Assembly (NCBI RefSeq): GCF_902728285.1 | Contig: NW_027104472.1 | Coordinates: forward strand, 1,063,681 to 1,127,680 | Source of the DNA: Clytia hemisphaerica | Lineage: Eukaryota | Length of the DNA stretch: 64,000 nucleotides | Direction of reading: 5' to 3' | Shown: piece after piece, positions 6,072-30,800 of the stretch | Position numbering within the stretch: position 1 is the first letter of the stretch | Layout: every line of letters begins with the position of its first letter | Notes under the pieces: generated by a model | What the model was told of the DNA's origin: nothing | Databases searched by the model: none | What the model saw: the letters and a program-made list of their open reading frames with translations, nothing else | Translations under genes and position numbers: made by a program

Positions 6072-7326
6072 ATGGTGTCTGCAAGCAGCTCAAAATGTAA
6101 ATCCGAAGTTGAAAATTTGAGACTAAAAATCTCCCAACTTGAACAAGACATTGATAAAATCAACAAGTTATCTAACAAAAGATTTGTATGTATCGAGAAA
6201 AGAATTGAGAATAATGGAAATGCCATTCAAGAATTGAATTTTGTACTTGGGCAATATGTTGGGACCCATGAGGACTATTATCGAGATATCAATGATGGTG
6301 ATAGACTAGAAACCGAGACAATAATTTCTGCTGAAGAATCTAAATTCAAGTCTGAGACAAATGACGGTATCAATGATGGCGATAGCAACTATGATCGGGA
6401 TATTGCCATCAGTGGCAAGAGTCGGGAAACCGATACAAAGATGATTGAAAATTCAGAGACAAGTGTCAAGTCAGAGACAAACGACGGTTTTATAGATGAG
6501 AATTACACAGATCGTAATGATGTCACGGAAACTCAAATAAACGGATCGCTACGCAACGATATCAGAAACGAGTCTCAAAAAGGTCGAAAAATTGATATCA
6601 ATCACTACTTGAAGAAAAGTCCTATTTCTTCAAAACGAAATAATTCAAGTCGTTCTCTGAAAAAGACTTTATCGGTGCGAATGTCGAAATCAAACTCTTA
6701 TAATGATCAAGGGATCCCTTTAGGTGCTATTCCTAAGGGCACATACTTTGAGAACCCATTATCAAATGATGTTATTAATAAAGATACTTCGAGGGATGAA
6801 GAAATCAACTCAAATCAATCTGCCCGGTCTTCTGGAAGATCTGATTCTAAAAAGTCAATGTCGCGAACTAATTCAGACGTTCAACTAAATTTTGGAGGCG
6901 TTTTAAGCTCGGTGACGATGTCCAGAAAGAGAGCTAACATTGAAGCCCAATTAGATAAGAACCTTGAAATCATACTTAGTCCGTTACAAACCCGCATGAA
7001 ACACCAAAATGACGAAGAAGGGATCAAACACTTGGAAGAAATCGAAGAGAAAATTCATGAAGAAAAACAAAGTTATGCTGAAGGACTAACCATCCATGGA
7101 GCAAATCGAATCGCGACTGGTAGACCATGTAGTAAAATCATATGGTCTATACTTGTGATTGCCTCACTTACTACTGCAGCTCTGATATCAAAGGAACACT
7201 GGGAGGCTTACTTGAACAAGAAAAGTATATCTAATACCATGATTTTACACCAACAGAGTATTCCCTTACCAGCTATTACTGTGTGCAATTATGATGGGAT
7301 TAACAAGGAGAGACGAAATTTCCAAG
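6072..7326 (+). CDS. DEG/ENaC (amiloride-sensitive Na+ channel, ASIC/HyNaC-like) 5' coding exon: long low-complexity N-terminus, HG motif, TM1 and post-TM1 FPAITVC motif. Probable donor caag|gtgggc at 7327.
   Basis: The 439-aa ORF ends ...GLTIHGANRIATGRPCSKIIWSILVIASLTTAALISKEHWEAYLNKK...SIPLPAITVCNYDGINKERRNFQ. TIHGANRIA matches the DEG/ENaC His-Gly motif. It is followed by a hydrophobic TM1 and the family-diagnostic FPAVTIC-type motif. The true start Met is uncertain (possibly internal, e.g. the MSRKRAN or MKHQNDEEG Met). Confidence 0.7.
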
Positions 7327-7419
7327 GTGGGCCACCGTCATATGTTCGCCCAACGTTGGTCAATTTCCCAAGCATGCACTCTCAGTTTTAAAGGTCTTTA
7401 TTAAGACCTTTTGGGTGTA

Positions 7420-7800
7420 TCAGGTAACGATCCGTTATCGCAGAACGTTTTGGGTCTTGTTCTAAATCAGACCTTAAGGTCTTGATTTTAATAGGACCTT
7501 TATCGCGCCCAATAGAGACTATTCTAGATCCCGAAAGAGACTTCAAGGGTTCTGATTCTATCAAACCTAAAAGGTCTTATTTTAAACGAGACCTTTCGAA
7601 AAAAGTCCGTTATCGCAGAACGTTTAGGGTCTTGTTCTAAATCAGACCTTTAGCGCGCCCAATAGAGACTATTCTAGATCCCGAATAAGACTTCAAGGGT
7701 TCTGATTCTATCATACCTAAAAGGTCTTATTTTAAACGAGACCTTTCGATAAAAGTCCGTTATCGCAGAACGTTTGGGGTCTTGTTCAAAATTAGACCAT
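7420..7800. repeat. Tandem repeat of a roughly 190-bp unit (about 2 copies) built from GGTCTT/AGACCT words. A related roughly 180-bp tandem duplication lies at 8941-9240.
   Basis: The string ccgttatcgcagaacgtttngggtcttgttctaaatcagaccttnagcgcgcccaatagagactattctagatcccgaanaagacttcaagggttctgattctatcanacctaaaaggtcttattttaaacgagacctttcga occurs twice. agcgcgcgaaatngagacctttagaggtct...cattgaaaaggcttgta is duplicated at 8941 and 9118. Confidence 0.65.
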
Positions 7801-9567
7801 ATTAGTGCCTAAAAGAAACTATGTTTAGTACTCGTTTTTGAAGGTCTGTAATTTTCAAAAGGCCTAAATTGTCGAAACAAAACCTAACAATAATTAAGAG
7901 AAGAAGAGAATAAAAATACTCAAGAATTTCAATGTAAAAGATATATTCTAACAAATATCCATTATATTATGTATATAATAGTTCTTTGATATCGAAACGT
8001 ACAAGAGATGTATTGTACGTGTCCAGTTTGTTCATGACAATGATGATTATTCACGACAAAGTCTAGCTGTTTATGTAAGTACGACTGTAAACCAGATTGT
8101 CAAACAAACGTTCGTGTCCAAGAGTTGAAAATTGAATAGACGTTTGTTATGGTGACGGTGACACAAAACTTTAATGAACTGGATAGTTGCGTGCTAACAT
8201 GAAAGCTGGATAGTTGCGTGCTAAAAAGAGATAAAGATCACAAAACTGGTTTTTAGGCCTATTACTTCATCGAAATGTAATTTAGAAAATTTGAAAAATT
8301 CTTTACTTTTGATCCAGATCTTCAAAGTTTTCCAGAAAAAAACAACAAATTGGGCAAAGATACAGTTTATTCAATTCTTACCTCAGCAGAGAGTCGATTT
8401 TGTTCTGGCCATACTTTAAACAAACGTTTAGATAATGTGATGGTGGGATTTACAGCGACAGTGACATGGGCTCACATGATGTTGGGTTAGATTCTCGTTA
8501 ATGTCGAAGCTGAAAAAAATAATATAATAAAAGATTTAAAACGAATATTGCACAAAAAATAAAATAAAATTTCGTAAAAGCCTAGCTAGTAGGATCAATA
8601 AATACAAGCACAAAATTCGATCGAGCCTCGCCAAAACTTTCCATGGGTGTATTTGCAACAATAAAGCTCCATGTTTGTGGAAGAAAAAAGGATTCATCCG
8701 ATCAAAAGATATATATATATATATAGCTCCAGTGAACAAAAAAAGGATTTTAAGAAATTTCATTACGTGAAGATTGTGTTACTTACCTTTTTTTCTTTTT
8801 GCTCTTCAGACCGTCTTCACCCTTTTGGCTCCAAAATTGTTTTGATTTTATTTTTGCACAATTTTGAACTTTTCGAATTTCGAACGACGTTCGAAACATT
8901 CGAAAATTCGAAAGAAGTCGTTACACTGCTCTAGATTTTTTAAAGCGCGCGAAATCGAGACCTTTAGAGGTCTTCATAAAAGCCCTTTTTATCGTGTCTA
9001 TTGGATGTTCACTATCGTGTCTATTGAAAAGGCTTGTAAATGGCAGACCTAAAAAGGTCTTGTTTCAAACCAGTGAGCCTTTAGAAGTCTTGAAGGAGAC
9101 CTTTTTGGCGACCTTTTACAGCGCGCGAAATTGAGACCTTTAGAGGTCTCCATAAAAGCCCTTTTATCTTGTCTATCGGATGTTCACTATCGTGTCTATT
9201 GAAAAGGCTTGTATCAGGCAGACCTAAGAAGGTCTTGTTTCAAACGCGTGATTGAGACCTTTAGAAGTGTTGAATAAGACCGTTTCCAAGAAGAGACCAT
9301 GAAGGTCTTATTTCGAAAATACAAAGGAGACCTTTTTGGTGTATAGAACAAGACCCTTGCTTGAATGGAAACCTTGCAAGGTCTCAATCGGCCACACAAG
9401 AGTTTCAATTCAGACCTTTCATGATATACTGACATGTAAGTAAAAATTAGACCGGCTAAGGTCTCAAAACTAAACCTAAAAGGTTTGAATTCAGACTGAT
9501 AAGGTCTTTCTTCAAATTAGCATCTAAAAGGTCTCATATAAAACCCTAAAAACTGAGAGTGTGAGAG

Positions 9568-10472
9568 CCTGCGGTGGCCTAAACTTAACAAAGTGCAGTG
9601 ACTTAAAGTCGAGACCTATCAAAGTTCAAACTATTTCACATGATTATTCTAAAACTGAATTACAAAATCATTTAGTGGAATTTGATAATACGACTAATTG
9701 TTTTACTATCAAATGTTTGATTCAACCAACACCATCTAGCCTCTTATCCATACAGGCTGTCGTTAATAGTTCAGCGGCTAGTCGTACGAGTGAAATTTAT
9801 ATAAATCCAGCCTCGGAGACATTTCCTGAAACTTCTCCTACAGTCTATTGGGCTAACGAAGGGTTCTACCATGTTAATATTGAAAAGAAAATTATTACGC
9901 ACCTTGGAAAACCTTATACGGACTGTGTGAAGGGAAAAGGATCATATTCTCAAAATAAATTTAAAGGGAACTATACAGTGACTAAATGTGAGAAAGGATG
10001 TTTTTGGGAAAAAGTTTTTGAAAAGTGTGGAGCCATACCTCAAATGTATAAAAAACACATGCGCAAGCCGTATCGATTTGATAACAAAACATTTGTAAAT
10101 AACACTTTCGGCCAAGCGTGTTTAACGTCTATTGAGGGTGATTCAAGCGTTACTCAAAAGTGCCACGCCCTTTGCAAACTACCCCCATGTTACGAAGAAG
10201 ATGTTAAAATGACGTTAAGTTATCACCAATCAACTGCGCCCAATTTTTTCGAACTAGCAATTACTTTCCAATCGTTCTTGATTGAAATCGTCGAGGAAGT
10301 ACCTGCTTACACTTGGCAAGATTTATTCGCCAACTTTGGTGGTTGTGTAGGTTTGATGACAGGGGCTTCCATACTATCTCTTTTTGAATTGTTCATTTTC
10401 TTTGGGTTAATTTTGTTAGACTTTTTTGATATTTATACGAAAGTTTCTACTAAGATTCCGCACCACAAGTAG
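9568..10472 (+). CDS. DEG/ENaC 3' coding exon: thumb-domain cysteines, palm, G-A-S selectivity filter, TM2 and C-terminus (stop TAG 10470-10472). The 5' boundary is uncertain (candidate acceptors at about 9567 or 9746), and intermediate exons may exist in 7330-9560.
   Basis: The ORF 9561-10472 (+) contains ...KPYTDCVKGKGSYSQNKFKGNYTVTKCEKGCFWEKVFEKCGAIP..., a spaced-cysteine thumb pattern. It also contains LAITFQSFLIEIVEEVPAYTWQDLFANFGGCVGLMTGASILSLFELFIFFGLILLDFF. This aligns with ASIC1 ...[49 protein letters not shown], i.e. the pre-TM2 segment plus the G-x-S filter. Confidence 0.75.
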
Positions 10473-12851
10473 TAATGTTTTTGAAGCTTGTTATGCGAGA
10501 CTAATTTGATTAGTTGTTGACTTACCCTGAGATTCAAAAAATCGAAATAAAAATGAAATTGATTTTAGCAGTACATTTTTATTTTCATAGCTTTAGAGAC
10601 TGCCAAATTTTCAAAATCTTCGTAGTTTTTTCAAGGTTTTGAGAATTTCATGTTCTTCAGTTTTTCATTTTATCAATTAATTTGAGCTTTTTATGTCTTT
10701 TAATTTTCTATTTCTTATTTTTGTCAACATGTAGATTTTTGCTGCCTTTTGGAAGATTTTATAGGTGAAATTCTACTTTCATTTTTATTTTTTTCGACTA
10801 CCGACCGACCGACCCTCTTTTTTGGGTAGCTTGGCCCGTAAAACAACAAATTAAATTGGCCTCGCCCTATCGTGAAATATTACCTTTTGATTTTCTTACT
10901 ACAGTATAATATTTGGATCAGATTGTTTCCTTAGAAAATAATGATACTTTTTAAAAATCTTTGACATGTGACAGGTATATTGGGTTGTTCCGAAAAGTTT
11001 CGTACAGGGGGATGGGCGAAACTTTTTAAGTAAAAAAAAAACTTATTGGAAATGTGTGGATACCCCCTGGAAAATGGTAAAGTTTGCAAAAATACCCTTG
11101 GAAATATTCTTTTCATACCTTAAAGCGCGGGTGGACGAACTAAAACCAGTCTTTTACCCACTGGAAATTTTAGAGTATCTTTTTACCCCCTTTGAAAAAT
11201 GAAAAACGACCACCTGGAAATTTGTCTCGGATTACCCTCTGAAAATGTTCGTCCACCCCCTGTATGGATGTAATTTGGAATGGCCCATTAAAGTAAAAGC
11301 AATAGTAATAATTCATATAGTGATACTTCAGTCTTTCTTTCTGTTTAACGATATAAAGACAACTAGCCGTATGCGCAGCGTCGCACGCTGCGTGTCCCAA
11401 TCCAGTGAATCACTACACATCTAAAAAATTCTAACGGAAGAAAGATAACCGCCGATTGATGATTTGATTTTGATTTTAGGAAATAAAGGAGAAAAAAGAT
11501 AACATTGCATTGCAATTTTTAACCACAATTAAATAAATGGCTTAGCAAAAGTATATTTTAGATCTTCTTAGCCAAAAGAAGATTGATTTTAACCCATCAA
11601 GCTCCAAACTTGGTGAATAGAAAATAGTATCTTGGGGTCTCAAAGTTAGTCTAGTGATAGGAAATCTGCTTAAGGTGCAAAAAGATGATGGTTCAACGCC
11701 ATGAAGAGGAGGCTTTGTAGAACTTTGTTAGATTTTCGAAAACTTTTTACAAAAAATTGTAAATACACACGTTTAAGCGTATTAATATATAGATTGACAA
11801 ATATTACTTATCCATCCATCCTTCCATACACTATTAATTCAGGTTTCCTCCCTTCCAATGTCGTTTCCAAGCCCCTGAAAGGCTCTAGCAACCCATAACC
11901 CAGCTGGCACACGACGTTGTTTCAACGTTCATCTGACGTTAAATGGACGCTACGGACGATAGATAGCACAAATATACAGTCCTCATAAAAGATTAGTGAG
12001 GTTAAGCAAGTGTTTATTTAAACCGTTCAATGCGATATTTTAGGCCTGTACATAAGATTTCACTTGCATGGTTTGCTTTGGCAAGTTATGTACAGGCCTA
12101 CGGTATCGCACTTTACGGTCAAAATAAAGCGCTTCGATCGCACTTTTTCGAGCAAAGATTCCACGCCATTGGTCAAGAGAAAAATGAAGCAACTCCATTG
12201 GCGCGATCTGACCAACGTTGATCTGACGTAACAAAAAAGTTGAAATGTGCTCAACTTTGTTTTACGAGTGCGCACCACATTTTTATGACGTAATCTTTTT
12301 TCCAAGCAAAAAGGATTGAAGCAAAAAAGTGCGATCGCAGCGCGAGTAAGTGGAGACCGGCCTTAAAAATTTTTAATTGAAATTAAATTTCATACTTCTG
12401 TAAAAGGGCATTGTTTGACAGTTCACGCTTTTTTATATAAGAACATACTTTATAAGAATATTTATGATGAAATTGGCCAGAAAATTAAAAATATGACAAG
12501 AATACCACCACCATGGAATTTGGTAACTGAGCCTAAGAATGTCATTTTTTGAGCATTTTACCATTAACTTGCCAATTATTACCCAGCAATGCTAAGAGGT
12601 TCAACAAAAATGCCAAATTTTTGCTTGACGTATGTTTTACATGCTAGATTTTGGCTGGGATTAGATCCAAACCTAAGAATACCGTAAAAATATTTCAAAA
12701 AAGTTGAGAATATTCATGATCAATTTGAAAAAAACACTTATTATTCTTATAAAAAAAAGAAGCTTGTATTCTTCTTAGTCAACTGTTTGTACTAGTAAAA
12801 ATTCTAACAGATTGCAAAGGGGAATTTCAAGTTTCCTTCTTTTTCATTTTA

Positions 12852-15800
12852 GTCCATTTTGAGCATTTCGTTATCACGTGACGGAAAACATGTGGCTTGT
12901 GGAACTGAAGATGGTCACGTGTTTGTCTATGATAAAGAGTCCAGCAAGGTACGTACTTTACTTTCAAATGAGCACTCTGTATGGTATGTTTCCACTCAAG
13001 TGAGGAAATTACTCTAACGTCCCAAATAAACGGGAAAAATCGGAGGGGTCCCAATTCTTCTTAGATTTTGAAAAAATTTCGGACTCCCCTTCCCTGCTAT
13101 TCGAAACTTTAGAGTGGCGAAGGAAAAAATATTTGAAACATGAAATTTTGAAACAATTTTTTTTGGACCTACCCCGGTGGGGTGGAGGTCCTATAAATTA
13201 ACCTGTGTTAATCCGTCCGTCCGTCCGTTCGTTCGTCTGTTACCAACTTTTCTCAGGATTGAATCATAGGAATCTTTTGATTTTTGTTACAAAGGTGCAA
13301 AATGGTAGTGGCCAAAATGTGACGGAGCCCGATTTTCGAAAAAATAAAATTTTTTTAGGCAAATTTGGGCCAAAAAACGGCTAAAAAACGGGTTTTTTGG
13401 ACTGTGTGAAAAATTGGATCATTAATTTTTTCTGTTTTTTTGCATGAAAGTAGGCTAACATCATTGGTAAAAGATGGCTCAAGCAGATTTTTGCAAAAAA
13501 ATTTTGTTGGCTCAAAAAACACATGTTTATCTATAAGAATTACTATTAATAAGCATACATCAATGTTCTTATTCAAATTACTCAATTTTTTTATGAGATA
13601 CATGCTTTTCTTGCTCACGAGGGCTTACTTTTGAAGAATATGTGTGTTTAGACATGAAATTTTGGTTGCTTGGCGTGTTTTTATAGAAAAACTGGCCAAA
13701 TTCAATATTTTTTTATAAGCACATTATCAACTACTTACGTATTAGCTTTTCTCGAGATTGGTTCTTTCATTCTTTATGATTTTTTGCACAAAGATGCATA
13801 ACTATAAACCCTCGAATGTGACGGAGCCCGATTTTCGAAAGAAAATGTTTTTGGGCAAATTTGGGCCAAAAAACGGCTAAAAACAGGTTTTTTGGACTTT
13901 GTGAAAAATTGGATCATTAATTTTTTGCATGAAAATAGGTAAAAGATGGCTCAAGCAGATTTTTGCAAAAAAAATTTGTTGGCTCAAAAAACGCATGTTT
14001 ATCTATAAGAATCACTTTTAATAAGCATACATCAATGTTCTTAGTCAAATTACTCAATTCTTTGATGAGATCGATGTTTTTTGCTCACGAAGTCTTGAAT
14101 ATGAAAGAATATTCCACGATCATGAAATTTTGGTTTCTAAACGTTTTTTTTTTATAAGAAACAAACGACTAATTTTAATAGATCGTCACTATTTGTGTTC
14201 TGAATGATTTTTTAACGTATATATCAATTATATGTGTTAAATTTATAACCAGGTAGGTCCATAAAAGTATCACTTGTTCGATTTCTTATAATCCCTTCGT
14301 ATGATAAAAGATACAAAGGAAGACACAAAGGAAGCTTGATTTACTAGGATGTTTATATAACGTAATTTTTTTTGCTCTCTAGAAATTCTATTTTGAAATT
14401 ATTCCACCTACAGTTTTCGGGTTGGTCTAAAAAGCAGGGTAGCCAATTGGGGTAGCCAATTGGGCTAGGTTGTGGGGTACCTAAATATTATACAGACCAG
14501 AATAGAAATACCGAAAATGAATGCATAGAACCACATTTTACTGACCAGGGAGCACGAATCTGATTGATACTTAGATTGATCATGTATGATTACAAAGATA
14601 AACAAAGATATAAATTACCACGTGTTAATGCACGAGGAGTAAGAAATAGCGCTTCATTATAATAGAGCTATTTCAAAAGACTTTTTGTACCTATTATAAG
14701 CTGCAATATTAAAAAATTTTGAAAGGAATTAATTGTTTGAAACATCTAATCATGATATAAATTAAACAATAGATTCAATAGCAAAGGATTGTTAAGATAT
14801 GACAAGATTAGAGATCATATGGCCCAAAGGCGATTCCAAAGCTATTATCATCGAATTACAGCTTCACGGAAATAACAATTAAAAACATAAATAAAATCTA
14901 AATCTAAAATATTAAAAACTGTTTTGTATATATATATTTTTTATTCGGGTCTGTAAATTTTCAAACGAAGCCAAGAAGGAAGACAAAATGGCGCCAGGTC
15001 TCTTGAGAAGTAACAAAGTTCAGTACCTTTGGAAAAAAGGCTATTGTGGCTGAAATTCGAAAGGAATCTTAAATTTTATTACATGGAATCATTAACAAGA
15101 TGTTGTATAGTTATTTCCACATGAAAACAGGTTTCAGATTTCAAAAGTTTAGGCAAAAAGAGGTACCCCATAACCTAGCCCAATTGGCTACCCCATTGGC
15201 TACCCTGCTTTTTAGACCAACCCACAGTTTTCTTATTTTGAATCAAAGAAGTCTTATAACGCAGGGTTGCCACGTCTGCCGAAAATGTCTAGAATTTAGT
15301 AAAAGTCTGGAAATAGCGTACCTGTCTGGAAAAAGTCTGGAAAAATTCTCAAAATAGATTTTTCAGTCTTATATATAAACAACAATTATCTTTGTTAAAG
15401 ACAACCTTAGAATTTTGGTTTTTGCACGTTTTTTTACTTGTATATACTTTGTCACTTATAAAAAAGTCTGGAAAATATTGGTGTTTTTTACCTAAAGTCT
15501 GGAAAAATTTGGCGATTTTAAGCAAAAATATCTGGAAAAATTGAGGTTTTTGGGCAAAAGTCTGGAATTTTGAAAGTTTCCTACCCGTGGCAACCCTGTA
15601 ACGTTTTCTAATTTATCCAAGTAAAATGCTAGACTTATGTATATATACACTGTCTTTTTTTGCGCTCATGTGATTTCTTCATATTTTTAGGAGATACATT
15701 CGTTTTCGGGTCATTCGGGCGCCATTACCGCTTGCTGTTACGCAGGGGATAAGCTCTGTTCAGCATCCACTGACTCTAACATTTCCATTTGGGATTTGAA

Positions 15801-18800
15801 CACTGGACACAGGTTAGTGACTAAACATTGAGAATACTAGAATAATCGTTTTTGTGACTTGCCTGTTTCATGGTTCATGGTTGTGAATTTACTGTATTCA
15901 GTAATTTTTTTAATCGACCGTGATGCATAAGGGGGTTTGGTTCGATCTTAGTATGATCAAATAACGCTATTAATTATTTGTATCGACAACTATTTTAATT
16001 TCCTGTAACCGTGAATATGGCAATGTAATATCATAAACACCCCCTTCTCACAGACCCACAGGGAACCCTTCCCACTGGAAAAATTAGCCAGAATATCGTC
16101 CCCGGTGGAAAATTATACACCAATTTTTGTCCCCGCTGAAAATAATCAGATTAGCAAATCCTCACTGCAAAATATTGTGCTATTTTTTCCACCCCGCTGA
16201 TTATTTTTGTCCTAAAACAATGTAATTGAAGTCCCCAACCATAAAAATATTGCGTTGTTACTAAAAGTGGTAACACAGGGTAACACATGGTAACAGGGGG
16301 TAACACTAGGGTAACAGGGGGTAACACATGGGTAACACATGGGTAACAGGGGTAACACTAGGGTAACAGGGTAACAGTTTGAAAATGGTGGCTCTGAGGG
16401 GTCGGAAATTTGAAAATTGACTTAACCAATGTTGTTGGTGAATACAATGATAGAATGAATGATGCTGGTCAATGCAATGATGGAATCGATGTTGCTGGTG
16501 AATGCAATGATGGTGTTACTGGGGAATGCAATGATGGAATCAATGGTGCTGGGGAATGCAATGGTGGAATCAATAGTGCAGGTGACTGAAATGATGGAAT
16601 CGATGTTACTGGTGAATGCAATGATGGTGTCACTGGTGAATGTAATGATGGAATCAATGGTGCTGGTAAATGTAATGCTGTAATCAATGGTGCTGGTGAA
16701 TGCAATGGTGGAATCAATAGTGCAGGTGACTGAAATGATGGAATCGATGTTACTGGTGAATGCAATGATGGTGTTACTGGTGAATACAATGATGGAATCA
16801 ATGGTGCTGGTGAATGCAATGGTGGAATCAATAGTGCAGGTGACTGAAATGATGGAATCGATGTTACTGGTGAATTTACATTCAGCAGTAACATCATCAT
16901 TGCATTCACCAGCAACATCGATTCCATTATTTAAGCCCTCTGCACCATTGATTCCACCATTGCATTCACCAGCACAATTGATTCCACCTACAGATACCAG
17001 CACTATTGATTCCATCATTGCATTCACCAGTAACCATCATTGCATTCACCAGTAACATCGATTCCATCTTTTCAGTCACCTGCACTATTGATTCCACCAT
17101 TGCATTCACCAGCACCATTGATTCCACCATTGCATTCACCAGCACCATTGATTCCATCATTGCATTCACCAGTAACACCATCATTGCATTCACCAGCAAC
17201 ATCGATTCCAACATTGAAGTCACCTGCACCATTGATTCCAGCATTACATTCACCAGCACCATTGATTCCATCGTTGCATTCACCAGTAACACCATCATTG
17301 CATTCACCAGCAACATCGATTCCATCATTTCAGTCACCTGCACCATTGATTCCAACATTGAATTCACCAGCACCATTGATTCCAGCATTACATTCACCAG
17401 CACCATTGATTCCATCATTGCATTCACCAGTAACACCATCATTGCATTCACCAGCAACATCGATTCCATCATTTCAGTCACCTGCACCATTGATTCCAAC
17501 ATTGAATTCACCAGCACCATTGATTCCAGCATTACATTCACCAGCACCATTGATTCCATCATTGCATTCACCAGTAACACCATCATTGCATTCACCAGCA
17601 ACATCGATTCCATCATTGCATTGACCAGCATCATTCATTCTATCATTGTATTCACCAATAACATTGGTTAAGTCAATTTTCAAATTATCGACCCCTCAGA
17701 GCCACCATTTTCAAACTGTTACCCTGTTACCCTAGTGTTACCCCTGTTACCCATGTGTTACCCCCTGTTACCCTAGTGTTACCCCCTGTTACCATGTGTT
17801 ACCCTGTGTTACCACTTTTAGTAACAACGAAATATTGGGAATATCAATACCCGTCGAGTTTAGGTCCGTTATTTTCACCCCACTGGCTGGAAAAATCCCA
17901 CCGGGTCTGTGAGAAGGGGGTGTTCATAATGACTTCAAACATTTGAATTCAATAGACACTGGTAAAGTCGAACTTCAAACTTGATTCAAAGGTTGACCAT
18001 TTCCAAAAAAACTTTGTCTTTCCGGCTTTCAGATTACATTCACTGAGCGATCACAGAGAACCAGTAACTGGATGCGTTGTCACAAGAGACGGTAAACTTC
18101 TCGTCACCGTATCATTAGACAAGACGGCTCGCTTATGGAACGTTAATGACGGCTCGGCTGCCGGTTTTTTAGCTGGGCTCGATAGCCCGTTGAATTGCGT
18201 TGCCATGGATACGGAAGATAAACATGCAGCGTTAGGAGGTTGGAATAAATGTATTGTCATCTGGAATATCTTGGAAAACAAGAAAATTGCAGTGAGTATC
18301 GTTTGAATTCTTTTTATGACATTTAGCTCGGTTTTGACCATATACGGTCATAGAAGATTTTTGTCCCAAGGGTGATGGGTCAAATAATTTTCAGAACTGT
18401 ATTTGATTATCTTACACTCATTTTACAGTCAAAATTAGAGCCTTGTTTTTTTTTTGGAAAAAAGAAAGTGACTAGAGAATCTCCCCATGTGACCATATGT
18501 TTTCCTGACTTATTTATATCCCGACATACCCTTAAAAGGTATCTACAAAATCTTTCTACGTAGAGAGATTGATGGTTTTCTTCTTATTACACTTTACAGA
18601 GCTACAACAAAGGACATAAGAGTTCCGTCAGAGCATTGGCTTATTCTCCCAACGGATCTTATTTAGCGTCCTCCGGTTTGAATGGTGAATTGTTGTTGTG
18701 GTCCACCCAGAGTGGAGCTATGGTGAGTTGTCGTGTCTTAAAGGTTTTGTTTTTAAATAAGAGTGATTTCGCTTGCTTGCTCACCAATTTTAAGTCGCAA

Positions 18801-21800
18801 GCATTTTCACATTGGATTGACACGGATGTGGAGCAAGACTGATCAGAAAGAGGAAAAGAAAAAACATTTTTTTGCTTATATCAGCACAATATAACAATAG
18901 ACAGACACTGTCTGATATGAAACGGGAACACTTATGTAAAAATAAAACCTTTAACGTCTGTCGAAAAGCTATTGTCATGATAATGTTGATGTATCAATCA
19001 GAAAATCACCTCTTTGCCTTTATGAATGAAATTGAGAAAAACTGGTTGGATAGGCCATAAATGAAAATGTCATAAAAATTAACACTTTAGGGCAATTGTA
19101 CACCCATCTCGATGGACAGTTGCTTCACCATATACCGTCACTTTGCTCTAGTTTAGACGGCCGACTTTCTGCCCTGCCTATTCTAATTGTTAGAGTAGGC
19201 AGAAAGAGGGCACAAAGTTGGTTGTTAAAATCTTTGCTTGGAAAGGTTTGAAGAAGACATTGCATTGACGTCAAAAGAGGGCTATGCATCGACTTTAGAC
19301 AGCCCACTTTATGCCCTCTTTAATTCACAATTAGAATAGGCAGGGCAAAAAGTGGGCCGTCTAAACTAGAGCTTTATCATATTTGAATTGATTTGGGTTA
19401 ACTCGCATGAGATTTAGATTGATAGAGTCGATATTTTACGTGGATAGACCAGCAATCTAGAAGTTTTTTGATACTCTTTCGATTGACGGTTCGGCTATCT
19501 TTGAACTGAACTGAACGGAACATTGGAAGGAGCAGGAATTCGAATCGGGATCCCCTGGTGTCAGGCGCTGGCACCCTGACCATTCGCCCTTCGCTTCTTT
19601 GAATAGACCTTATTGGAGTTTTTGATTTTTCTAAAAAACGATGCATTGTTGGATTCTTTCGAGTGTATTACAATAGAAATCTCTTAGGAATTCCTCAAGG
19701 GAATTCTATTGTAATACACTCGAAACAATCCCACAATGCATCGCTTTTTTAGAAAAATCAAAAACTCCGATAAGGTCTATTGCTTTCGTTTAAAACACCT
19801 CGTATGAATTTTGCATGAATTATCTTTCCATCGTAGATTGGACAACTGTCCGAATTGAAACACCACGTCCGACATATATCTTTCTCGACTGATGGATTAC
19901 AGCTGTTTGGAGCCAGCGATGATTCTAGTATCAAGGTAAACTAAAGTTTTTCTCTGGGTTTCCTTTAGTTGGTTCCTAAAGATATCTTTGACGGAGTCGA
20001 ACACTTTAAAGTGTAAAAACAGCAAATGAAGCCACTGCTTCGGTTGAAATTTTCGTCATCTTTTACGTAAATTTGACTCTCTCTAATTTTATTTTCTCTA
20101 ATTCGAATTCTCTAATTCGAATCTTTCTGTAATTAGAACTGAAACATTGGTCCCCTAAATTGGAAAGGGGTTCAAAATACTCTCTATAATTCGAATTTTC
20201 CCTAGTTCTAAGAAAAGTGTTAGTCTATTGAAGATCGAATTAGAGAGAGGCGACTGTAACTCCATCAACATATAGCTCAACAAAAAATGATATCCTTTTA
20301 TAAGAGAAGCTAGGAATTTGACAGAGTCGATATTTTACGTGGATGGCTCAGTAAAGAAGGACTTTTGAACAGTCTTTTCATTGTTTTTATGACAAATTCA
20401 TGACAAATTAGTCCGGCTGTATGGATGGAACCTTAGACCGTTCGGCCATTTACCAACGGAGAAGCAACTCAATATAAACTTCGGAAATACTTTTTTATTT
20501 GTACATCGTACATCGTAGGAAATGAGAAATGGCGAGCATAGAAAGAGATCTTTAATGGTCTACTATAACATAAGAATTTATGACGATATACAAATTTTTT
20601 TGACCTTTTTAGATTTGGTCCGGAACCCTTGGTTGTCCTGAGCGACAAATAGACGACATGGATGAGGATGACGGAAATACTGACGTCAGCAAACAACATA
20701 ACGAATACGCGCTTTCTGTTTGTGTTAGCGACCATCTTGTTGCCATTGGTTACAACAGTGGAAAAGTGTCCGTGTACCGAAACAAGGGATCGAGGTATCA
20801 TGTAGCAGGGCACGAAAGATTGATTTCAACATGGAAAGCTCATTCGTCAAGTGTACGCTCTATGTGCTTCTTGAGGTAATTATTTATTATTTCATTCTTT
20901 GACCAATATATAAGGAATTCGATTATTTATTTGTAGTCTTTGATCAGAATTTGAAATATAATCTTCTAAAATTTGCGATGAAACTGAATTCAAAAACTTT
21001 TCAGCATTGAAAATGGTTGAATACACCAAAAAGCTTCCTGTTCTTTACAAAACTTGTCGCGATACCATTTATTTTATATTCAATTTGCAGAAAAACATTT
21101 TGAGAAGAAACTAATTTGATACCTAAACTTAAATTCCCCTCGTTCGATTTCTGATGGCTGTAATAATACCCTAGGCCTTTTCATAAATTACGTCACGAAC
21201 ATCGCTTGCCGTACTCTAACAATTACCATGGTGATTATGTCCCTTGAGACATTAAATGATTTTTTTATGAATAGAAAGTAGTTTTAATAAAATCCGCTGG
21301 GAGTTAATCACCATGGCAATAATTTCAAAACGAGGCAAGTGACGTTCGTGACGTAATTTATAAAAATGTCTACTTTCTGTATAATTTTAGAAGTCATTTT
21401 TTGCTTTAGTCGGAAAGGACACCAAGCTCAGGTTGTCGGCGCCCAACTATGAATCCGTATTAAGACTTTTTGTATATTCCCTTTAGATCGGACAGTTCTG
21501 AATACAAAAAAGATTTGGTCACAGCATCAGATGATTACAAGATTATTCAATGGGCGCTGAAAGGCCGAGATCACAAACAAGCACGACTTCTTGAGGGCCA
21601 TACCAACGGTGTCACGTGTGTACGAGCCAAAGAAGCGTGAGTCTCGATTACTTGGTTTTATTTATCACTCTTTTTCTTGGAAGACAAATGAATCAGTCCT
21701 TTTGAAGAGTATGGTGTAGCTGTCCACAAATTATGGCAGATTCTTTTACGGAGCAGTGGCCTTAAAGTCCGGTCTCTACTTGCGCGCGTTGCAATTGCAC

Positions 21801-24800
21801 CTTTTGGCTTCAATCCTTTTTGCTTGGAAAAAAGATTACGTCATAAAAATGTAGCGCACGCTCGAAAAAAAAATTGAACACATTTCAACTTTTTTCAACC
21901 GTTACGTCAGATCGCGACAATGGAATTGCTTAATTTTTCTTTTGACCAATAGCGTGATAGCTTTGCTCGAAAAAGTGCGATCGCAATAGTGGAGACCGGC
22001 ATTTAGAATAATCAAAATCTGCGCTGAGATAACGCCGAAGAAGAAATAGTAATAAATGTGTTTAATGGTTTTTAGTATGTATTTTATCCAGATCTATGAG
22101 AATTTAGCTAAGGGTTTAAATATTTGGATCGCTAATTTTTTTCTTTTTCTATTCACTTAGTTACATCATCTCATCTTCAAAAGATTGCAGTCTTCGCGTC
22201 TGGAACGCCATTTCCTTTGAAGCGGTTGGTCACCGTGGCAACAGAGGACAACAACCACAACAAGAAAGCAGTGTGGCCACTCTACATGGTCACACAGGGA
22301 TTGTGACTGGTTGTGATTTATCACCATGTGAAACTAAAGCTATATCGTGTGGTCATGATAGGGTAAGTTAGTCCCTATTCATGCCAACCCAAAATTTCCA
22401 TTCGATGGAAAACCCTCTCTAACGAAAGATGGGGATCTACTTTAAGGGCAGAAAGTTTCGGGAGACCGAAAAATCGTTATATTTTGCGGATTTTAGTTTT
22501 GAACAAAGTTTACTGAACAAAACGATTTTCTAAAAATCTCTATTTTTAATGGAAATAACTTTCGCGAATTTTCCGCTTTCCTTCTTAGCTGGCATAAACT
22601 TTAGCGAAAGAACGCTAAAGTTGCGAAAACCTCAAAACTTAAAGTAGATGTTTTAATTTTCTTGCTACAATTTGGTGGCTCATACAAACTTCAGTAAAGA
22701 ATCTATGTTTCTTTGTGTTTATGGGCTTATTTCTGACAAACGACAAAGCTTACCTTAGCAACCAATCTCAAACCAATGGAGCTTACTAACGACTGAAAAT
22801 GATGCAAACTCATTTCGGGTTTCTCTCTTTTAGGCTCTCTTCATTTGGGATTTAACTAACTTCACATCACTCTGTGTGGTTCATAACGCTCACGGTGACG
22901 GCATTACGGCGTGTTGTTGGTCTGACGTCGGCACGTACGTCGTGACGGGGTCAAACGATTTCAAGTTGAAACTATGGAATACAAAAGTGTTGATTGAAAA
23001 TAAAGATGAAATGTCGAAGTTGAAAGAACGAAGCACCTTCATTGGTCACACTACTACTATAAATGATGTCAAGTACAAGGTATTAAATAGGCCATTTTTT
23101 ATGCCCTTTTAGCGTCCGGTTATTGGACGCTGCCCCTCCTGAACTCACTACAATTTTGGTAAAAACAGCCTTTTTAGTGGAAAAACACTAGAAAAAGTGC
23201 TCTTTTTGGCCACCAACGGACGCTGCCCTGCCTTTCTAAAATATGGCCTGTTGAAATCATTTGGCAAAGTCGAACCCAATCCCTTTTTTATGATTCCGAT
23301 TATACCAACGCCCATCGGTAAATAAAAAGTATGGTACAAGTGATTCTGGGTGTTCATGATATGCACCACTGGAGAGTCTTCTGAGATTTTCCACCCAATA
23401 CTTTACTTAAACAATAGAAAAAGTGACGTATTGGGTGAAAGAAAAACAGAAAAATTGCATAATTTCGTGAAGTCATTGCATATCATGAATTGTCCGTAAA
23501 CAGACCCGATATTTACAAAAAGACGACTTCTATCCGTGAGATACACTCTGGTACAGAGTAGCCTGGGTATGAGATGGATTTTTCGAAGATTATGAAAAAT
23601 AAAAAATCGATCAACTATAGATGTCTCTTTTCCAAAAGTCCTGCCCAAACCTCTTAGAATTTGATTTTGAAAGTACTGCGACGATTCAGTAAAATTAACA
23701 AAAGTTGTTCTGAATACTAATGGGGGTCGGAGTTTGTTTCTTATCGAAGTTAGATCACTTACTTACTTGTTTTCTTAAATGTTATATTTTTACATAAGTA
23801 TTCCCTTTTTATATCAGACACATATTTCATATTAGGAAAGTGTCTGCCTATTGTTATATTATGCTGATATGAGCAAAAAAATGTTTTTCTTTTCCTCTTT
23901 CTGACCAATCTTGCTCCACATTAGTGTCAATTCAATGTGAAAAAGCTTGTGAATAAAAATTGATGAGTTAGCAAACGATACCACTCTTATACAAAAACAA
24001 AACCTTTAAACGACTTACGGTTTAGGTCACATACAAGCCAATCGAAAATGAGCTCGGAGCTTAAAACTTTGGAGAAAAGGAATCAATTTTTCAGTAAACT
24101 ACTTTAAAACTTATTGAATTTTCATTCTTTTTCGTACTTAGTTTGGTTGTGTAGTATCCAGCAGTGCGGATGGTCACGTCAAAGTATGGAATCAGAATGG
24201 TGTAGAGATAACAACATTCCAACCACACAAAACAAGGATCAATTCTGCAGATTTGTGGGCTCCTGGTGTCAGCATTGAGGACGAAGAACAAGGTGAATTT
24301 TTGAAAATTCTTTAAAATGAATGCTCCCAGAACACTATCAAGACAGTCAATAAAATCGCTCATCGATTATAGCTAATCGAGGTAAAAATAATTGCGAATA
24401 TCGATAATCGATCGATTAGCTAACTATTGAAATCGATTAGCAATAGATTATTTTCGATGAGATATCGATTAATATCGATTACCTTGCGGTATCGACTTTT
24501 ATCGATTATCTATCGATGAGCTATCGATTGTTATCGACGAACTATATATTGTTATCGACGAACTGTCGATTGTTATCGACGAACTATCGATCAATATCGA
24601 TTACCTTACAGTATCGATGATATCGATTGATAATCGATACAAAACATCCATCGATTAAATATCGATGACAGCGATTGGATTGATAGCAATCGATAGCTAA
24701 TCGAGGTCAAAAAATTGTGAATATCGATTAGCTATCGATTTAAATCTATGATCGATTTTATTGATTACGACTGTCATGAACGATTAAGTTTAGGGTTAAT

Positions 24801-27800
24801 CTAGGAGTAGTTAAAATTGGAAACGACCAGAAAGAAAGTCTGCAGATTAAACGTCGAGAAGGTTAATTCTGACAACTTTTCAGGAAGTGTAAACCGTCTC
24901 AAGTAAGGTAACAAATCTTAATGTTCAGGGTATATCCTCTAACACTTGACGCTAATGCAATGATTTTTTCAATCTTTAATCGAGCAAAGATTTTAACTAC
25001 CATCTTTTCTGCCCACGCTTTGCCTTCTCTAACAATTAGAATTTGCAGAGCAGAAAGTTGGCCGTCTAAACTAAAGCTTACAAAGATATAAATACTCACT
25101 AATAAATTCGTCTCATTTAACTTTAAGGTACTGCATGGTCAACACGCACCAAAGACTTGACTTCCATTCAGCAACGTGTTCGAGCCAAAACACCAAAGAA
25201 TCTCCAAGATATTCTATTGTTCACAGCCAGTGATGATGGTACCACACAATCTTGGAGACCTTTCAAGGTAATCTTAATAAGTTTGAGTTTAGAATTAAAC
25301 ATTTAGTTGTCAACAAGTAAAAAAATACATTACTGTCAGTTTCACCCGAAGGATTATCAAATGTAAAATGATTAACTTCTACGCCCCTTCTACTTCGAAA
25401 AAATTTCTCAATGTACACACAAAATCCCATCGGGAGTATATAATTAACACTATTAACATAGGAATAAAATGATAACAGAAAGTCGTAAAAGTTGGGTTGT
25501 AAAAATTAGGTTGTAAAGATTAATCTTCCGGGGGGGGCTGCTTTAAAGTACCATATCGGGGAAAAAAATGTCGGGGGAAAGTGACGAAAATTTTGAGGGG
25601 GTGACGAAATTTTCCTCCGACGAATTTTTTCCCCGATATTTTATCACCCGACCAAAACTTTTACCCGATTTTTTTATCCCCGACCATAACTTTTACCAGA
25701 TTTTTTTATCCCCGACCAAAATTTAAATCTAAATTTTTCACCTCTTTATTAACCAAAATTAGTGCTTTAAACGTCGAATTACAAGATCTTTTTTCGAGCT
25801 AGTGAAGGAAACCATTTTATTTGGACAATTTAGTTGGGTAAAAGTGACTAAATCGTAAATTTCGTCGGAAAAAAGTGATGAAAATGCCTCTAGGTGACGA
25901 AATTTTTCCCCTAAGAAAAAAACCCCGACTAAATAAAACTCCGACATTTTTTTCCCCGATGAGGTAATTGAAATAAAATTTATTTAAGTTTGAGTCACAG
26001 TGGAAGTCAATCGTGGCTCAGATCACGAGATTCATGTTTGACTATAACGTTTCGAGAGATTCTTCTTCCATAAAAAAATAGGGCAAGGTGGAGGATGTTT
26101 TCATACAAACGTAAATCTCGTGATCCAAGTCACTTTCTAAACTTTCAAGGTAGGTGCAAAATGAGTAAAGAAAGGGTCTAAAATATTAATGACGAAATGA
26201 CTCTACCAATTACCATTTATTTTGTTCCAATTTTTGATCGGTTATCGAGAAAACTGATTTTATTTAATTATGTTTTTGTTTGTGAATAGATTTTGGTGGA
26301 AATTCAATTAGGTGGATGAAGGGTCTTTTTGGCATCACAATGCTTTTTGATATCACAATGTGGTCCCCCCTACCCTTGCATTAGTAAACTACGCTGATCT
26401 CTCATCCCATCTTTGGGAGTTTGGGAGTGACATTTCAAAGCGATGTTTTAGGGTGGATGGACAAGAATGAATGGGTTTGAAATTAAGGGGAGAAATATCA
26501 AAATTCTTTCTTTGGAGTACTACTATTAGTTACACGGTCTTCTCGAGGTGGGATACGGGATATACAGGGTCAGTAAAAACCGTATTGGTGGCGAGGCTTG
26601 CCGAGTTTGGCACAAACATTCTCAATCACTGATTTACCCTTTTTTTATTCTTTCTGTCTTTTCAAAACAAAACATTCGAATTTTGACCAAAACATTCGAA
26701 AGCGCATTCGTCAATATGCAATGTCTTCTTTTTTTTCTCAATCGAATGCGAGGAAGACAGATACGGTTTATATCCCACCTCCACGTGATGTCTTTCGACC
26801 AATGGAATCGCGAGAATCTTACTGATGCCGGATAAACTATGTTATACGTTAGATACATTCTGGTACAGAGTGAGGGGGGGGGCGGGCCTCACTTTTTTTG
26901 CAGACCATACTTATGTACATTGAACCAACTTTAAACTGACCAAATCAAATCTTAACTTAAAAACTGTTTTTGGGTATCATTTTTCCCCCAAAATATTGAA
27001 CCCTCCACTCCAAATGGCTCACCTGTGAGCCCGTGGAGATACCAGACCAGACCACAAATTTGTATTGAAATATTCTCCCTATCTATTTCCTCATAGCCGG
27101 ACTTGTTGAACGCACTATACGGTCATTCCAACGTTGTCAGTGAAGTGAAACAAGGATCTAATGGAGAACTGATCAGTGGTAGTTTGGACGAGACCATCAA
27201 AGTCTGGGATTTCAAGGTTTGTTATGTTTTTTGTACAGTAAAGTCTCCGTAACTATAGAATGTCTCCTTAAACTCGAGCATGTTCTGGATCCCTTCAGAG
27301 GCACCAAAGCCTTATAAACACGACAACGTTTCCATTACTCAATTACTCGAACAAATCTGCGTTCCCCGTGAGAGTTTGAGTTATGGAGACTCCACTTTAA
27401 TTTCTTTTCAATCAATTTTTTAAAAGATGGACCTCTTGACCAGGCTTCTTGAAAGATTAGAGTGTGACCGCTAGGGAGTTCTCATTATGGCTGCAAGCCT
27501 TTTGCTTTTTACTTGCCTTGTAAGGTTTCTTCTAAAAGTTAAGTTAGATCCTGGTTACAACGAAAGTATTTTGCTGCTGTCCTTTAGAGTAGAATGTGGA
27601 GCTACTGTAATGGGATTAGGTCCCCCCCCATTGAAGACAAGAAGCGAATCTTGAACCTTTCTCAAGCAAGGAAAAGCTAAGCCTTAAATTTGTGCCTGTT
27701 TTGAATGACTGTTAGAATCTTGCACTTCCTTTATTTTTCTCATTTTACATTTTTCAAATTTTGCCGGTAAAATGTTACTTCCAATCCAGCCTTTTCAATG

Positions 27801-30800
27801 AAAACCAAGCTGGCCGCGTAATTTATATAGGAAATAAGTGGCTTCAAGTCCTAAATTGGAAATACGATTCTCGCCTAAGGCTATACCTAATTGCCCCCCC
27901 CCTATCCGAAATGCTAAAAACCTATATAATTTTCATCCGTTCGTTCTTCAGCTCTCAAAAGAAGAAGATAACGGACCTGCCCATTCAGGTGAAGTCACTT
28001 CCATCGCCCTTCACAATAATGACACCATTGCTACAGCAGGGCGGGATGGGCGTATCAACCATTACATCAAGAATGAGCTAACCATGACATACGTAACACC
28101 TGATTTGTCACCAGTAACCACCCTTGCGTTTAGACCTGATGGTAAGCGTGTTTACTTTGGCACGAGTAGCGGTCGTATGGAATGGCTGTCGACCGATAAC
28201 ACGGATCATTGTGAATTTTATACCCGTGCAAACTGTCCAGTGTTGAGTATGGCGACGCAAGGGAGTTTGGTTTTCGTCTGCACCACAAGACAGTTGTACA
28301 TCTTCACCATCAATGGGAATACATTGTAAGTCTAAGATCTTATAGTGTAGCAAGCTAGATGACTAATTCAGACATAGTAGAAATAAAGCAAAAAGTAATG
28401 AAGGGAATTTTAGCCTTATACAAACTAAATCCCGTAACAATAATCGTATTACCATATAATGCCTATACTACTGTATTATACGTATTATAAACGACTCCAG
28501 TCTAAAGATCTTATAAAATCCATAAGTTACGCGATTCCTTTATAAGAAATAGTAAAATTTTCATGCTCAACTGCTCTTAGGAAATTTAGTGAATGCTTAA
28601 TAATTTATAGGGTTTAGTCACTATATTATGATTTGCGTATACATTTTTTTATAAGAACATTCAAAATGTTTGAAGCCTTCGGATGTTCTTAACTTTTTGA
28701 GTTTTTTCCTTCACCCGCATTCCGGAAACACTACATTTTTTTATTTTCGCCTTACTTATAATTAATATTTCGGCCATTGAAGCCTCACGCTCTTATATAG
28801 TTTGTTATTATAAAAAAACGTGACGATCTTGTACTTCTTTTTTCACCAGGTCCAAAACAAGAGAACTGTGCGTTAGTTCTCCGCACACGGAGGGTGACTT
28901 TGACAAAATCACTCAGATGCAGCCTCTACACAATAACATCCTGGCAACTAGTTTCAACAGAAGTTTGGTATTCTCACCTCAAATATTGATCAAACAAATG
29001 GACCGAATGCTGGTAAGATAGAGTCGATTAATTTTGCCGACGCCCCAATAATCTAGGACTTTTAGACAGTTTTTTGCTTGTTTTAACGGGGTCCACGAAA
29101 CTTAGCTTATCTCGCTTTTTGTAATGTCACGTGATGGCACGTGCGACACTTTTTCAACCAAAAGCACTCCATCTAGCCCTTCCTAAAGAAGTGAAGGTAG
29201 GTAAGGCTAGAAATGCGACTAGAAATGCAACATCCGAGCTGTTATAAGATTTTAGGCCTTGATTGTACGTTGTTTTTTTTTTCAGTCTAGATGTGTGATG
29301 TTTTGACGATTTGAAATTATAAGATGTCATTCGTTTGAATTTTTTTTTAGGTCGAATATTTTCATAATCCACAGACAATCTTCGTTGACAGAGATAGAGA
29401 CCACCAATCAACAGATGCTGCATTTTCATCGGCATGTTTGCAAAATGATGGGTATTATTTGATCTATACTGGTCAAGAGAGTGGATGTATTTCACTCAAG
29501 GTCACATCTGACACTGAAATGTCGAAAAAAACTCAACAGGATATTCTAAACGAGCCTTCACAATCTCGACGAAAAGAACGTGTTGAAAATGTCGATTTTA
29601 ACGGCTCTTATGGAGGGCGTGGTGGGCGTCGTGGTAGAGGCGGATTTGGAAGAGGTCGAGGTCGAGGTCGTGGTGGGCGTTTGTATAGTCCGCCAAGTTC
29701 AGATGCTGATGAGTGGGATAGAGGTGAGTTTCCATTAAAGTTTCTTATACAAATAATTTACATATTTTGATATTTATGTATAGACAACAGTGTATCGAGA
29801 ACTAACTGATAATTATCATTATTATTACCATACTGATGCCCGCAATGCAGTTGTAGATATATTTCATCGTGAAGCGGTTATAATTTGGTTCCTTATTGGG
29901 CCCCCGGCGGTTTGCGTGAATGCGTGAATGGGCTTTTTCACTTGCGTGAATGTGTGAAAATTGAATTGGAAAACTTTGCTTGAACAAAAATTGCTTGAAT
30001 TGCGAAAAAACATCGTGTGAATGCGTGAATAGACGATATCGGCTTAACGTGAAAACTCAGATTTGATCCCCGTATATTGCCCACAATGCTTTGCGCGAAA
30101 AAAAGTTCACGCTGAAATTTTTTCCGCACAAAGCATTGTGGGCAATATTCGGGATCAAACCTGGGTTTTCACGTTAAGCCGATATCGTCTATTGGGAAAG
30201 GAATTTGCTTGATTGCGTAAATTGAAGGTCCGCTGCAACGGACTCCTTATCACTCGAATTTCTTGTGATTCCATTTATTTGATTAGACAACAGTTAAAAA
30301 AAGTTTGCCTCCATACACACAGATTTCTCTGAAAAATACTCTTTTCACTAACGCCTGTAGGCCCAGTGGAAGATGACTGGGGCCCGCCCAACCCTATAGA
30401 TGATGGGGACTGGGGACGAACGGATGAAGAAATCAAAAAACAAGATGAGCTTTATGAACGTGATCTTGAAATGGAAGACCTGTGCAATTCATCAAGAAAG
30501 GTTTGTTGAATAATTGTTTTTACAAACATTTTTTTTTACATTGGCTTTGATCACTGACCTTTATATATTATATAAAAAGTTCAGTGGCTTTGATAGAGTA
30601 AAGAAAAGTTTTTCAAATGATTATCCAGATGATAGTGAACAGCCTATAGTTATGTAATATTTCCATTATGGAAACACGCCCCTTCTCGCAGACCCGGTGG
30701 GATTTTTCAGCCATTGGGGATAAAACTAACAGACTGAAACTCATTTTATGGCTGGGGATTTCAATTCTTTTGTTTTCAAGTCAGAAAACTCAGTGGGGAT

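Follow-up and report, generated by a model that had tools for sequence, protein, structure and literature searches.

The analyzed window, a stretch of 64,000 nucleotides from the genome of Clytia hemisphaerica (contig NW_027104472.1, positions 1,063,681–1,127,680 of the forward strand; coordinates below count from its first nucleotide), contains a large inverted repeat in an intron of a WD40-repeat gene. The first-pass annotation, made from the sequence alone, had described it as a perfect palindrome of 1.9 kb, a single foldback element whose ends are the terminal inverted repeats (TIRs) of a family of MITEs (miniature inverted-repeat transposable elements). We find that the region (16037–17923, 1,887 bp) is better described as two nested non-autonomous DNA transposons than as one perfect palindrome: a foldback-type element of 1,577 bp lies within a MITE, and each of the two is flanked by its own target-site duplication (TSD). 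The features of the locus are listed below in the order of their left ends; a slash marks a splice boundary.

15691–15812, plus strand: upstream WD40 exon of the host gene, ending at the donor CAG/GTTAGT, with a continuous spliced translation.
15813–18032, plus strand: host intron, GT..AG, phase 2, 2,220 bp.
16031–16036, no strand: outer TSD, copy 1, TCATAA.
16037–16252, minus strand: left 216 bp of the outer MITE, TIR at 16037–16057; reverse orientation relative to the copy at 61525–61774.
16245–16252, no strand: inner TSD, copy 1, AAATATTG, the target site inside the MITE.
16253–17829, no strand: inner element of foldback type, 1,577 bp; the palindrome reaches both ends, and there is no loop or coding capacity.
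16253–16270, plus strand: left terminus of the inner element, CGTTGTTACTAAAAGTGG.
16269–16376, plus strand: left subterminal array, 11 GTAACA-containing units of 8–11 nt.
16377–16434, plus strand: left unique spacer, GTTTGAAAATGGTGGCTCTGAGGGGTCGG..., 58 nt.
16435–16875, plus strand: left minisatellite, 16 units (30 or 24 nt) forming higher-order repeats of 114/144 nt.
16876–16879, no strand: centre of symmetry, the 4-nt spacer TTAC between the 16-nt stems 16860–16875 and 16880–16895.
16880–17658, minus strand: right minisatellite, ~27 units.
17659–17716, minus strand: right unique spacer, the mirror of 16377–16434.
17717–17812, minus strand: right subterminal array, 10 GTAACA-containing units, one 11-nt unit fewer than on the left.
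17812–17829, minus strand: right terminus of the inner element, reverse-complementary to 16253–16270 at every position.
17830–17837, no strand: inner TSD, copy 2, AAATATTG.
17838–17923, minus strand: right 86 bp of the outer MITE, TIR at 17903–17923.
17924–17929, no strand: outer TSD, copy 2, TCATAA.
18033–18291, plus strand: downstream WD40 exon, acceptor TTTCAG/, donor /GTGAGT.

The two exons flanking the GT..AG intron at 15813–18032 join in a continuous frame on the plus strand; the spliced product matches the WD40 domain (PF00400) at 62.9 bits (cut-off 27), and beta-propeller models of TEP1 and NWD2 match it as well. The host is a TEP1/NWD-like WD40-repeat gene, and 16037–17923 is intronic, as the first-pass annotation had placed it. 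With the nested elements and one outer TSD subtracted, the intron is 327 bp long. Over a wider range, WD40-gene exons at about 12853–28326 (plus strand), together with an upstream open reading frame (ORF) at 390–680, suggest a TEP1/NWD-like gene; the gene of a DEG/ENaC-like ORF, mentioned below, would lie between parts of this gene, or between two such genes. At 24447–24655, within an intron of the WD40 gene, a periodic peptide string (IDELSIVIDELYIVIDELS...) in two reading frames indicates a further tandem repeat.

A large inverted repeat is indeed found where it had been reported: arm pairs of up to 362 nt are 89–93% complementary, and when the left half is aligned with gaps to the reverse-complemented right half, 96.6% of the 701 aligned positions are identical. 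It is neither perfect nor as long as the 1.9-kb unit. The arms of the inner element measure 626 bp on the left (16 minisatellite units) and 951 bp on the right (~27 units). As single-stranded DNA, 16292–17790 is predicted to fold into one long hairpin (−677 kcal/mol), from which the surplus of the right arm, ~325 bases, loops out as three bulges. Beyond 16253–17829, inverted repetition is limited to the 21-nt TIR of the 1.9-kb unit; the subterminal parts between the TIR and the insert, 195 bp on the left and 65 bp on the right, are two different halves of the MITE. A perfect end-to-end palindrome is ruled out by the unequal arms and by these MITE-derived outer parts.

Read inward, each arm of the inner element starts with an 18-nt terminus and 10–11 GTAACA units and continues, past a unique spacer of 58 nt, into a minisatellite of 24/30-nt units; the two arms are joined head to head. 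By the left terminus, TGTTAC (16256–16261) and the first GTAACA (16270–16275) form a miniature inverted repeat. GTAACA is seen 11 times in the left arm and 10 times in the right arm, against 0.12 occurrences expected per 128 nt from the window. Tandem Repeats Finder reports GGTAACA-type arrays at 16269–16376 and 17717–17813, and a 30-nt minisatellite with 15.6 copies at 16427–16875 and 26.6 copies at 16895–17657, with higher-order periods of 114/144 nt; the earlier description of the arms as a GGTAACA array followed by a 30-nt minisatellite agrees with this, and the foldback-type architecture proposed there, long inverted arms made of tandem subrepeats, applies to the inner element at 16253–17829. 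Within the minisatellite, one unit of 24 nt is followed by three to four units of 30 nt, which gives the higher-order repeats of 114 or 144 nt.

Outside the minisatellite, the outer portions of the two arms agree at 168 of 171 aligned positions (98%), and one indel of an 11-nt unit separates them. The first three minisatellite units are identical between the arms; further inward, unit number and order diverge. Two blocks of 144 bp in the right arm (17300–17443 and 17444–17587) are 100% identical, which points to a recent expansion specific to this arm.

Six overlapping ORFs run through the repeats (16422–17671). Pfam models show no domain above cut-off in any of the six, just sub-threshold rpo132 noise, and the one repeat ORF that was searched against proteins (17006–17671) has no homologue among 5.8 billion of them; the view that all six are by-products of the repeat period is borne out. 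Searches of the inner element with Rfam gave sub-threshold hairpin models at the centre alone. On the minus strand, 16745–16932 has sub-threshold matches to plant microRNA (miRNA) precursors, MIR397 (33.5 bits; gathering score 55) and MIR4359, a generic effect of the hairpin and not a miRNA gene.

The outer element is ~302 bp long, with the 21-nt TIR ACACCCCCTTCTCACAGACCC and the 6-bp TSD TCATAA. Its two parts, 16037–16252 and 17838–17923, match two other copies in the window along their full length, beyond the TIR:

30673–30917, plus strand: third copy of the MITE family, truncated, without one TIR and without the insert.
61525–61774, plus strand: second copy of the MITE family, 250 bp, without the insert; 6-bp TSD CTTTAG at 61519–61524 and 61775–61780.

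The outer terminal 20-mer CACCCCCTTCTCACAGACCC is exact at 16038 (plus strand) and 17922 (minus strand) and recurs at 61526 and 61754, with no match in any of 100 shuffles of the window; the outermost termini of the unit are thus, as had been noted, those of a dispersed MITE family. The MITE body carries four to five subterminal motifs resembling CCCCRSTG(R)AAAAT, similar to CCCCRSTGAAAAT, and these are present in the left part. By its length (302 bp; other copies 250–306 bp), TIRs, TSD of fixed length, non-coding sequence, and copy number (three in the window), the outer element is a MITE of a multi-copy family.

Further copies come from public metagenome contigs, which were scanned with a 17-mer of the outer TIR. 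The scan gave 63 loci, 13 of which bear the outer MITE family (contigs L010, L011, L017, L023, L025, L028, L033, L035, L041, L044, L047, L048, and L057); the remaining 50 are chance matches to the seed only. The termini are ACAC...GTGT in every copy, the insertion sites are varied and AT-rich, and the 6-bp TSDs are perfect in five of the seven full-length copies examined:

MITE in this intron: TCATAA, perfect.
Copy at 61525–61774: CTTTAG, perfect.
L035: ACAGAA, perfect.
L017: ATAAGT, perfect.
L044: ATTACA, perfect.
L028: 5/6 match.
L010: 4/6 match.

The contigs bearing the MITE are transcript-sized, and in several of them it adjoins a long coding sequence (CDS), that is, it occupies an untranslated region (UTR); in L048, for example, an integrin-beta CDS spans 25–2400 and the MITE lies in the 3′ UTR (e.g., 2847–2902). 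Because the best named matches of this integrin are from Hydractinia and Hydra (52–53%) and its 90% cluster holds no Clytia protein, the contigs probably derive from a hydrozoan other than C. hemisphaerica; a Clytia integrin, possibly a paralogue, matches at 48%. Judging from these sequences, the outer MITE family is common to Clytia and at least one other hydrozoan.

The boundaries of the inner element bear the signature of an insertion with an 8-bp TSD. The junctions read AAATATTG / CGTTGTTACTAAAAGTGG ... CCACTTTTAGTAACAACG / AAATATTG, and the 18-nt termini are exact reverse complements of each other that are found nowhere else in the window. Homology to the empty MITEs ends at 16250–16253 and restarts at 17829–17830; the matches of the two flanks overlap by 8 nt in L028 (968–975), and at positions 210–218 of a profile hidden Markov model of the MITE. 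When 16253–17837 is deleted in silico, 302 bp are left, and this remainder aligns over positions 1–302 with L028 762–1063 at 85% identity, with L010 and L035 at 81% each, and with L017 at 68%. In empty MITE copies the 8-mer region is single, reading AATATATG, AAAATATG, or GAAATATG. The insert is absent from all other MITE copies that reach the insertion site, ~10 in all (~8 of the 13 metagenome contigs and the two window copies).

With exact termini of its own, and flanked by an 8-bp duplication of its own, the palindrome is regarded as a separate element nested in the MITE. A complete MITE body of ~302 bp that aligns end to end with empty copies, together with these termini and this duplication, contradicts the initial assignment of the MITE TIRs to a single foldback element. 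The first-pass annotation had also made its transposon interpretation depend on terminal sequences shared with dispersed copies; such sharing is seen for the outer MITE only, while for the inner termini no second copy was found in the data searched.

We consider it likely, with a probability of about 0.7, that the locus represents two non-autonomous cut-and-paste DNA transposons, a foldback element nested in a MITE, in an intron of the WD40 gene. What is demonstrated is the anatomy, the nesting, both TSDs, the occurrence of the MITE in several copies, and the lack of coding capacity. The foldback-type element of 1,577 bp would have entered the MITE at AAATATTG and duplicated these 8 bp. Galileo and FB suggest, by analogy, that the repeated GTAACA units, perhaps together with the minisatellite, may act as multiple transposase-binding sites, with the transposase presumably supplied in trans by an autonomous partner. 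The arms would have changed repeat number independently, by slippage or unequal exchange, after the insertion or already in the donor copy; 16 vs. ~27 units and the perfect 144-bp duplication would be the outcome. As to the order of events, either the foldback element entered a MITE resident in the intron, or a MITE already carrying it may have moved in as a unit.

Several points weigh against this interpretation. The inner element is known as a single copy, and none other is found in the 64-kb window; an exact 23-mer of the inner terminus has 0 matches in the metagenome collection that gave the 13 MITE copies; neither the 63 metagenome loci nor the rest of the window show homology to the inner element; and viral contigs, scanned for the minisatellite consensus as well as for the inner terminus and outer TIR, gave 0 matches or chance matches to the seed only. 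No transposase or autonomous partner was found, and none is present in the window. The inner termini (CGTTG...) do not fit the YARNG rule of hAT elements, and the repeat counts of a palindromic minisatellite may carry assembly error. Finally, six of the eight TSD bases (AATATT) are self-complementary, and in the flanks alone only two positions tell a direct duplication apart from a longer palindrome; the argument for the TSD therefore leans on the comparison with empty sites.

Alternatively, the 1.9-kb unit could belong to a single composite foldback family that moves whole, by the MITE TIRs and the transposase of the MITE, with the short MITEs as its internal-deletion derivatives, or a MITE could have captured the palindrome once and moved as a unit ever since. 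The perfect outer TSD (TCATAA) makes arrival of the whole unit in one event possible, a foldback element and a MITE sharing ends have a precedent in Tetris and DAIBAM, and a deletion between the two AAATATTG repeats would yield precisely the structure of an empty MITE. However, the palindrome's own exact termini abut an 8-bp direct duplication, as expected of an insertion, the outer ends lie outside the long inverted repeat, and ~10 other MITE copies reaching the site lack the insert. The MITE copies differ from each other by 15–32%, whereas the palindrome arms differ by ~2%; therefore, the short form is old and widespread, and the insert looks young. Given the insert's own TSD and this difference in age, descent of the MITEs by deletion from a long element is judged less likely than insertion, and we consider the composite family on the whole unlikely.

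An origin of the palindrome in situ, not by transposition, is quite improbable. It would require a one-sided microsatellite and minisatellite array, already present in the MITE, to be inversely duplicated, by fold-back priming or template switching in replication or break repair, with the identity of the 8-bp flanks due to coincidence or microhomology. A centre with almost no spacer, just 4 nt separating the 16-nt stems, is what snap-back typically produces, neither the metagenome loci nor the window gave a second copy, and the flank AATATT is itself palindromic, which weakens the TSD argument; but an inverted duplication predicts CAATATTT on the right flank, where AAATATTG is observed in direct orientation, the empty MITE copies hold the 8-mer once and no arm sequence, and the palindrome breaks off on either side at one and the same nucleotide of the repeat. 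As for a false inverted arm made in assembly, by a chimeric or fold-back read or by collapse and mis-joining of a tandem array, chimeric-read palindromes normally also invert the flanking unique sequence, while here the termini are precise and symmetric, an 8-bp duplication flanks them, and the intact MITE flanks run into a coherent intron and exons, in a sequence without N runs. Palindromic tandem repeats are hard to assemble, and the unequal arms and identical 144-bp duplicates could reflect a mis-assembled repeat number; still, an artefact that created the arm itself is very improbable.

Foldback elements are defined by long, internally repetitive TIRs, and unequal arms, short TSDs, and the lack of an ORF also belong to the architecture described for them (PMC4079207). 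Four features define the class (FB, Galileo, Tetris, Tm1), and three of them are found in the inner element: long TIRs that reach its own termini, seen at 16253–17829 but not in the full 1.9-kb unit, with its 21 inverted nt; TIRs made of tandem subrepeats, with variable arm length (626 vs. 951 bp); and a flanking TSD, the 8-bp AAATATTG that is present on both sides and single in empty MITEs, with 6/8 bases self-complementary. The fourth feature is dispersal in several copies; for the inner element, the 64-kb window, the 63 metagenome loci, and the exact-pattern scans gave no second one.

The closest analogy to the nested Clytia elements is that of Tetris and DAIBAM. Tetris, from Drosophila virilis/americana, is likewise non-autonomous, with long TIRs containing tandem repeats and without an ORF; its repeat number varies between arms and alleles, and its TSDs are 8–10 bp long, compared to 8 bp here (PMC4079207). 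It shares its TIR ends with the MITE DAIBAM (PMC4079207); in both cases a MITE accompanies the foldback element, physically and in evolution. The association differs, however: DAIBAM has the outer TIR in common with the foldback element and is regarded as a deletion derivative of it, whereas the Clytia MITE is a host element in its own right, with a 6-bp TSD of its own and the foldback element nested in it. The repeat units of Tetris are ~220 nt long, vs. 24/30 nt in the Clytia element, which moreover has no middle domain, no sequence similarity to Tetris, and a cnidarian host.

FB of Drosophila melanogaster also has inverted arms of short tandem subrepeats whose unit length grows inward, as do the 8–11-nt and then 24/30-nt units in Clytia; in FB, the units are 10, 20, and 31 bp long. 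Unequal arms are another common feature, and in many FB copies, too, a central loop and coding sequence are lacking. FB, in contrast, is assigned to the Mutator/MULE (Mutator-like element) superfamily and makes 9-bp TSDs, compared to 8 bp for the inner element, and the sequences are unrelated. Membership in the Drosophila FB family is ruled out by the 8-bp TSD, the absence of a transposase ORF from the element, and the unrelated sequence. Tetris-like foldback elements with TSDs of 8–10 bp have been tentatively assigned to Mutator (PMC4079207).

Galileo, of the P superfamily, has long, internally repetitive TIRs as well, and its binding-site model may by analogy be applied to the GTAACA units (PMC3688188, PMC3573991): in Galileo, the transposase's THAP domain binds repeated sites within the long TIRs, which was proposed to confer specificity (PMC3688188). 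Autonomous Galileo copies differ from the Clytia element in that they encode a P-like transposase. The TSD of Galileo is 7 bp long; a TSD of 8 bp is compatible with hAT, P, some MULEs, and others. As regards hAT, the 8-bp TSD and the reiterated subterminal GTAACA fit, while the CGTTG terminus (vs. YARNG) and the very long TIRs do not.

The outer element resembles MITEs in general in being ~250–306 bp long, non-coding, multi-copy, and AT-rich, with a 21-nt TIR and a fixed TSD, and in residing in introns and UTRs; it differs in that a 6-bp TSD combined with ACAC...GTGT termini matches no superfamily that could be verified. IS3EU/GingerRoot elements have 6-bp TSDs and TA..TA, occasionally TG..CA, termini (PMC10045372). 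The MITE was accordingly rejected as a member of this group: the TSD length fits, but the ACAC...GTGT termini do not. Dada elements have TSDs of 6–7 bp and insert into small nuclear RNA or transfer RNA genes. They have been described as having short TSDs (7 bp in one example) and no TIRs, and as targeting small-RNA genes (PMC3706591). The 21-nt TIRs and the varied, AT-rich insertion sites rule out an assignment of the outer MITE to Dada.

Elsewhere in the window, a dispersed, unclassified repeat family is seen at 63094–63331, 5471–5559, 28644–28822, and 49622–49752, with matches to L011 103–366 at 68–85% identity. A short repeat at 242–342, 11899–11952, and 59956–60053 matches L017 1415–1516 on both strands, hence is palindromic, and is probably a second small MITE family. 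The ORFs at 37114–37386 and 38592–39050 (both minus strand) share a near-identical segment of ~85 residues (MKPDETIKI.IFFLLFFLFATVSAS...KRGHHESRERV), which points to a local duplication ~1.4 kb apart. At 45744–46818 (minus strand), adjacent ORFs of 157 and 182 amino acids, one with a Cys/His-rich segment resembling a zinc finger, look like the remnant of a mobile element and not like a host gene. The long ORFs on the plus strand appear by eye to encode a DEG/ENaC-type channel (6072–10472), two intronless proteins similar to G-protein-coupled receptors (43419–44366 and 48353–49393), and a serine carboxypeptidase (58803–59867). The ORF at 49839–50822 (minus strand) is 100% identical to the C. 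hemisphaerica UniRef entry A0A7M5V6R4.

For annotation, the ORFs at 16422–17671 should not be called genes, and the locus should be masked as two nested elements. Nothing here would surprise a transposon specialist, and the use of the result lies mainly in annotation and in studies of transposable elements in Clytia. The inner element is ordinary selfish DNA, a new member of the known foldback type that apparently has no name yet in this animal group; a search of the available literature library found no paper on foldback transposons in cnidarians. It may be mobile as a family, and it may have effects on DNA stability, splicing, or small RNAs. It would be a long shot that the ~590-bp intronic hairpin, transcribed in the WD40 pre-mRNA, is diced into endogenous small interfering RNAs, as a transposon-derived hairpin-RNA locus expandable via its minisatellite, or modulates splicing or stability of the host transcript, and that, in parallel, an active foldback family exists in cnidarians, with the inner element as its first member and a minisatellite able to seed satellite DNA, as happened with Tetris in Drosophila virilis.

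The locus provides a clean hydrozoan example of a foldback-type element with an empty-site control, along with a MITE family that has an unusual 6-bp TSD, appears common to Clytia and another hydrozoan, and often resides in transcribed UTRs. Should the inner element turn out to form a family, an autonomous partner would be easier to find by way of the termini and GTAACA arrays. With its arms of unequal length, the element is a candidate site of instability or recombination in the genome of a model jellyfish.

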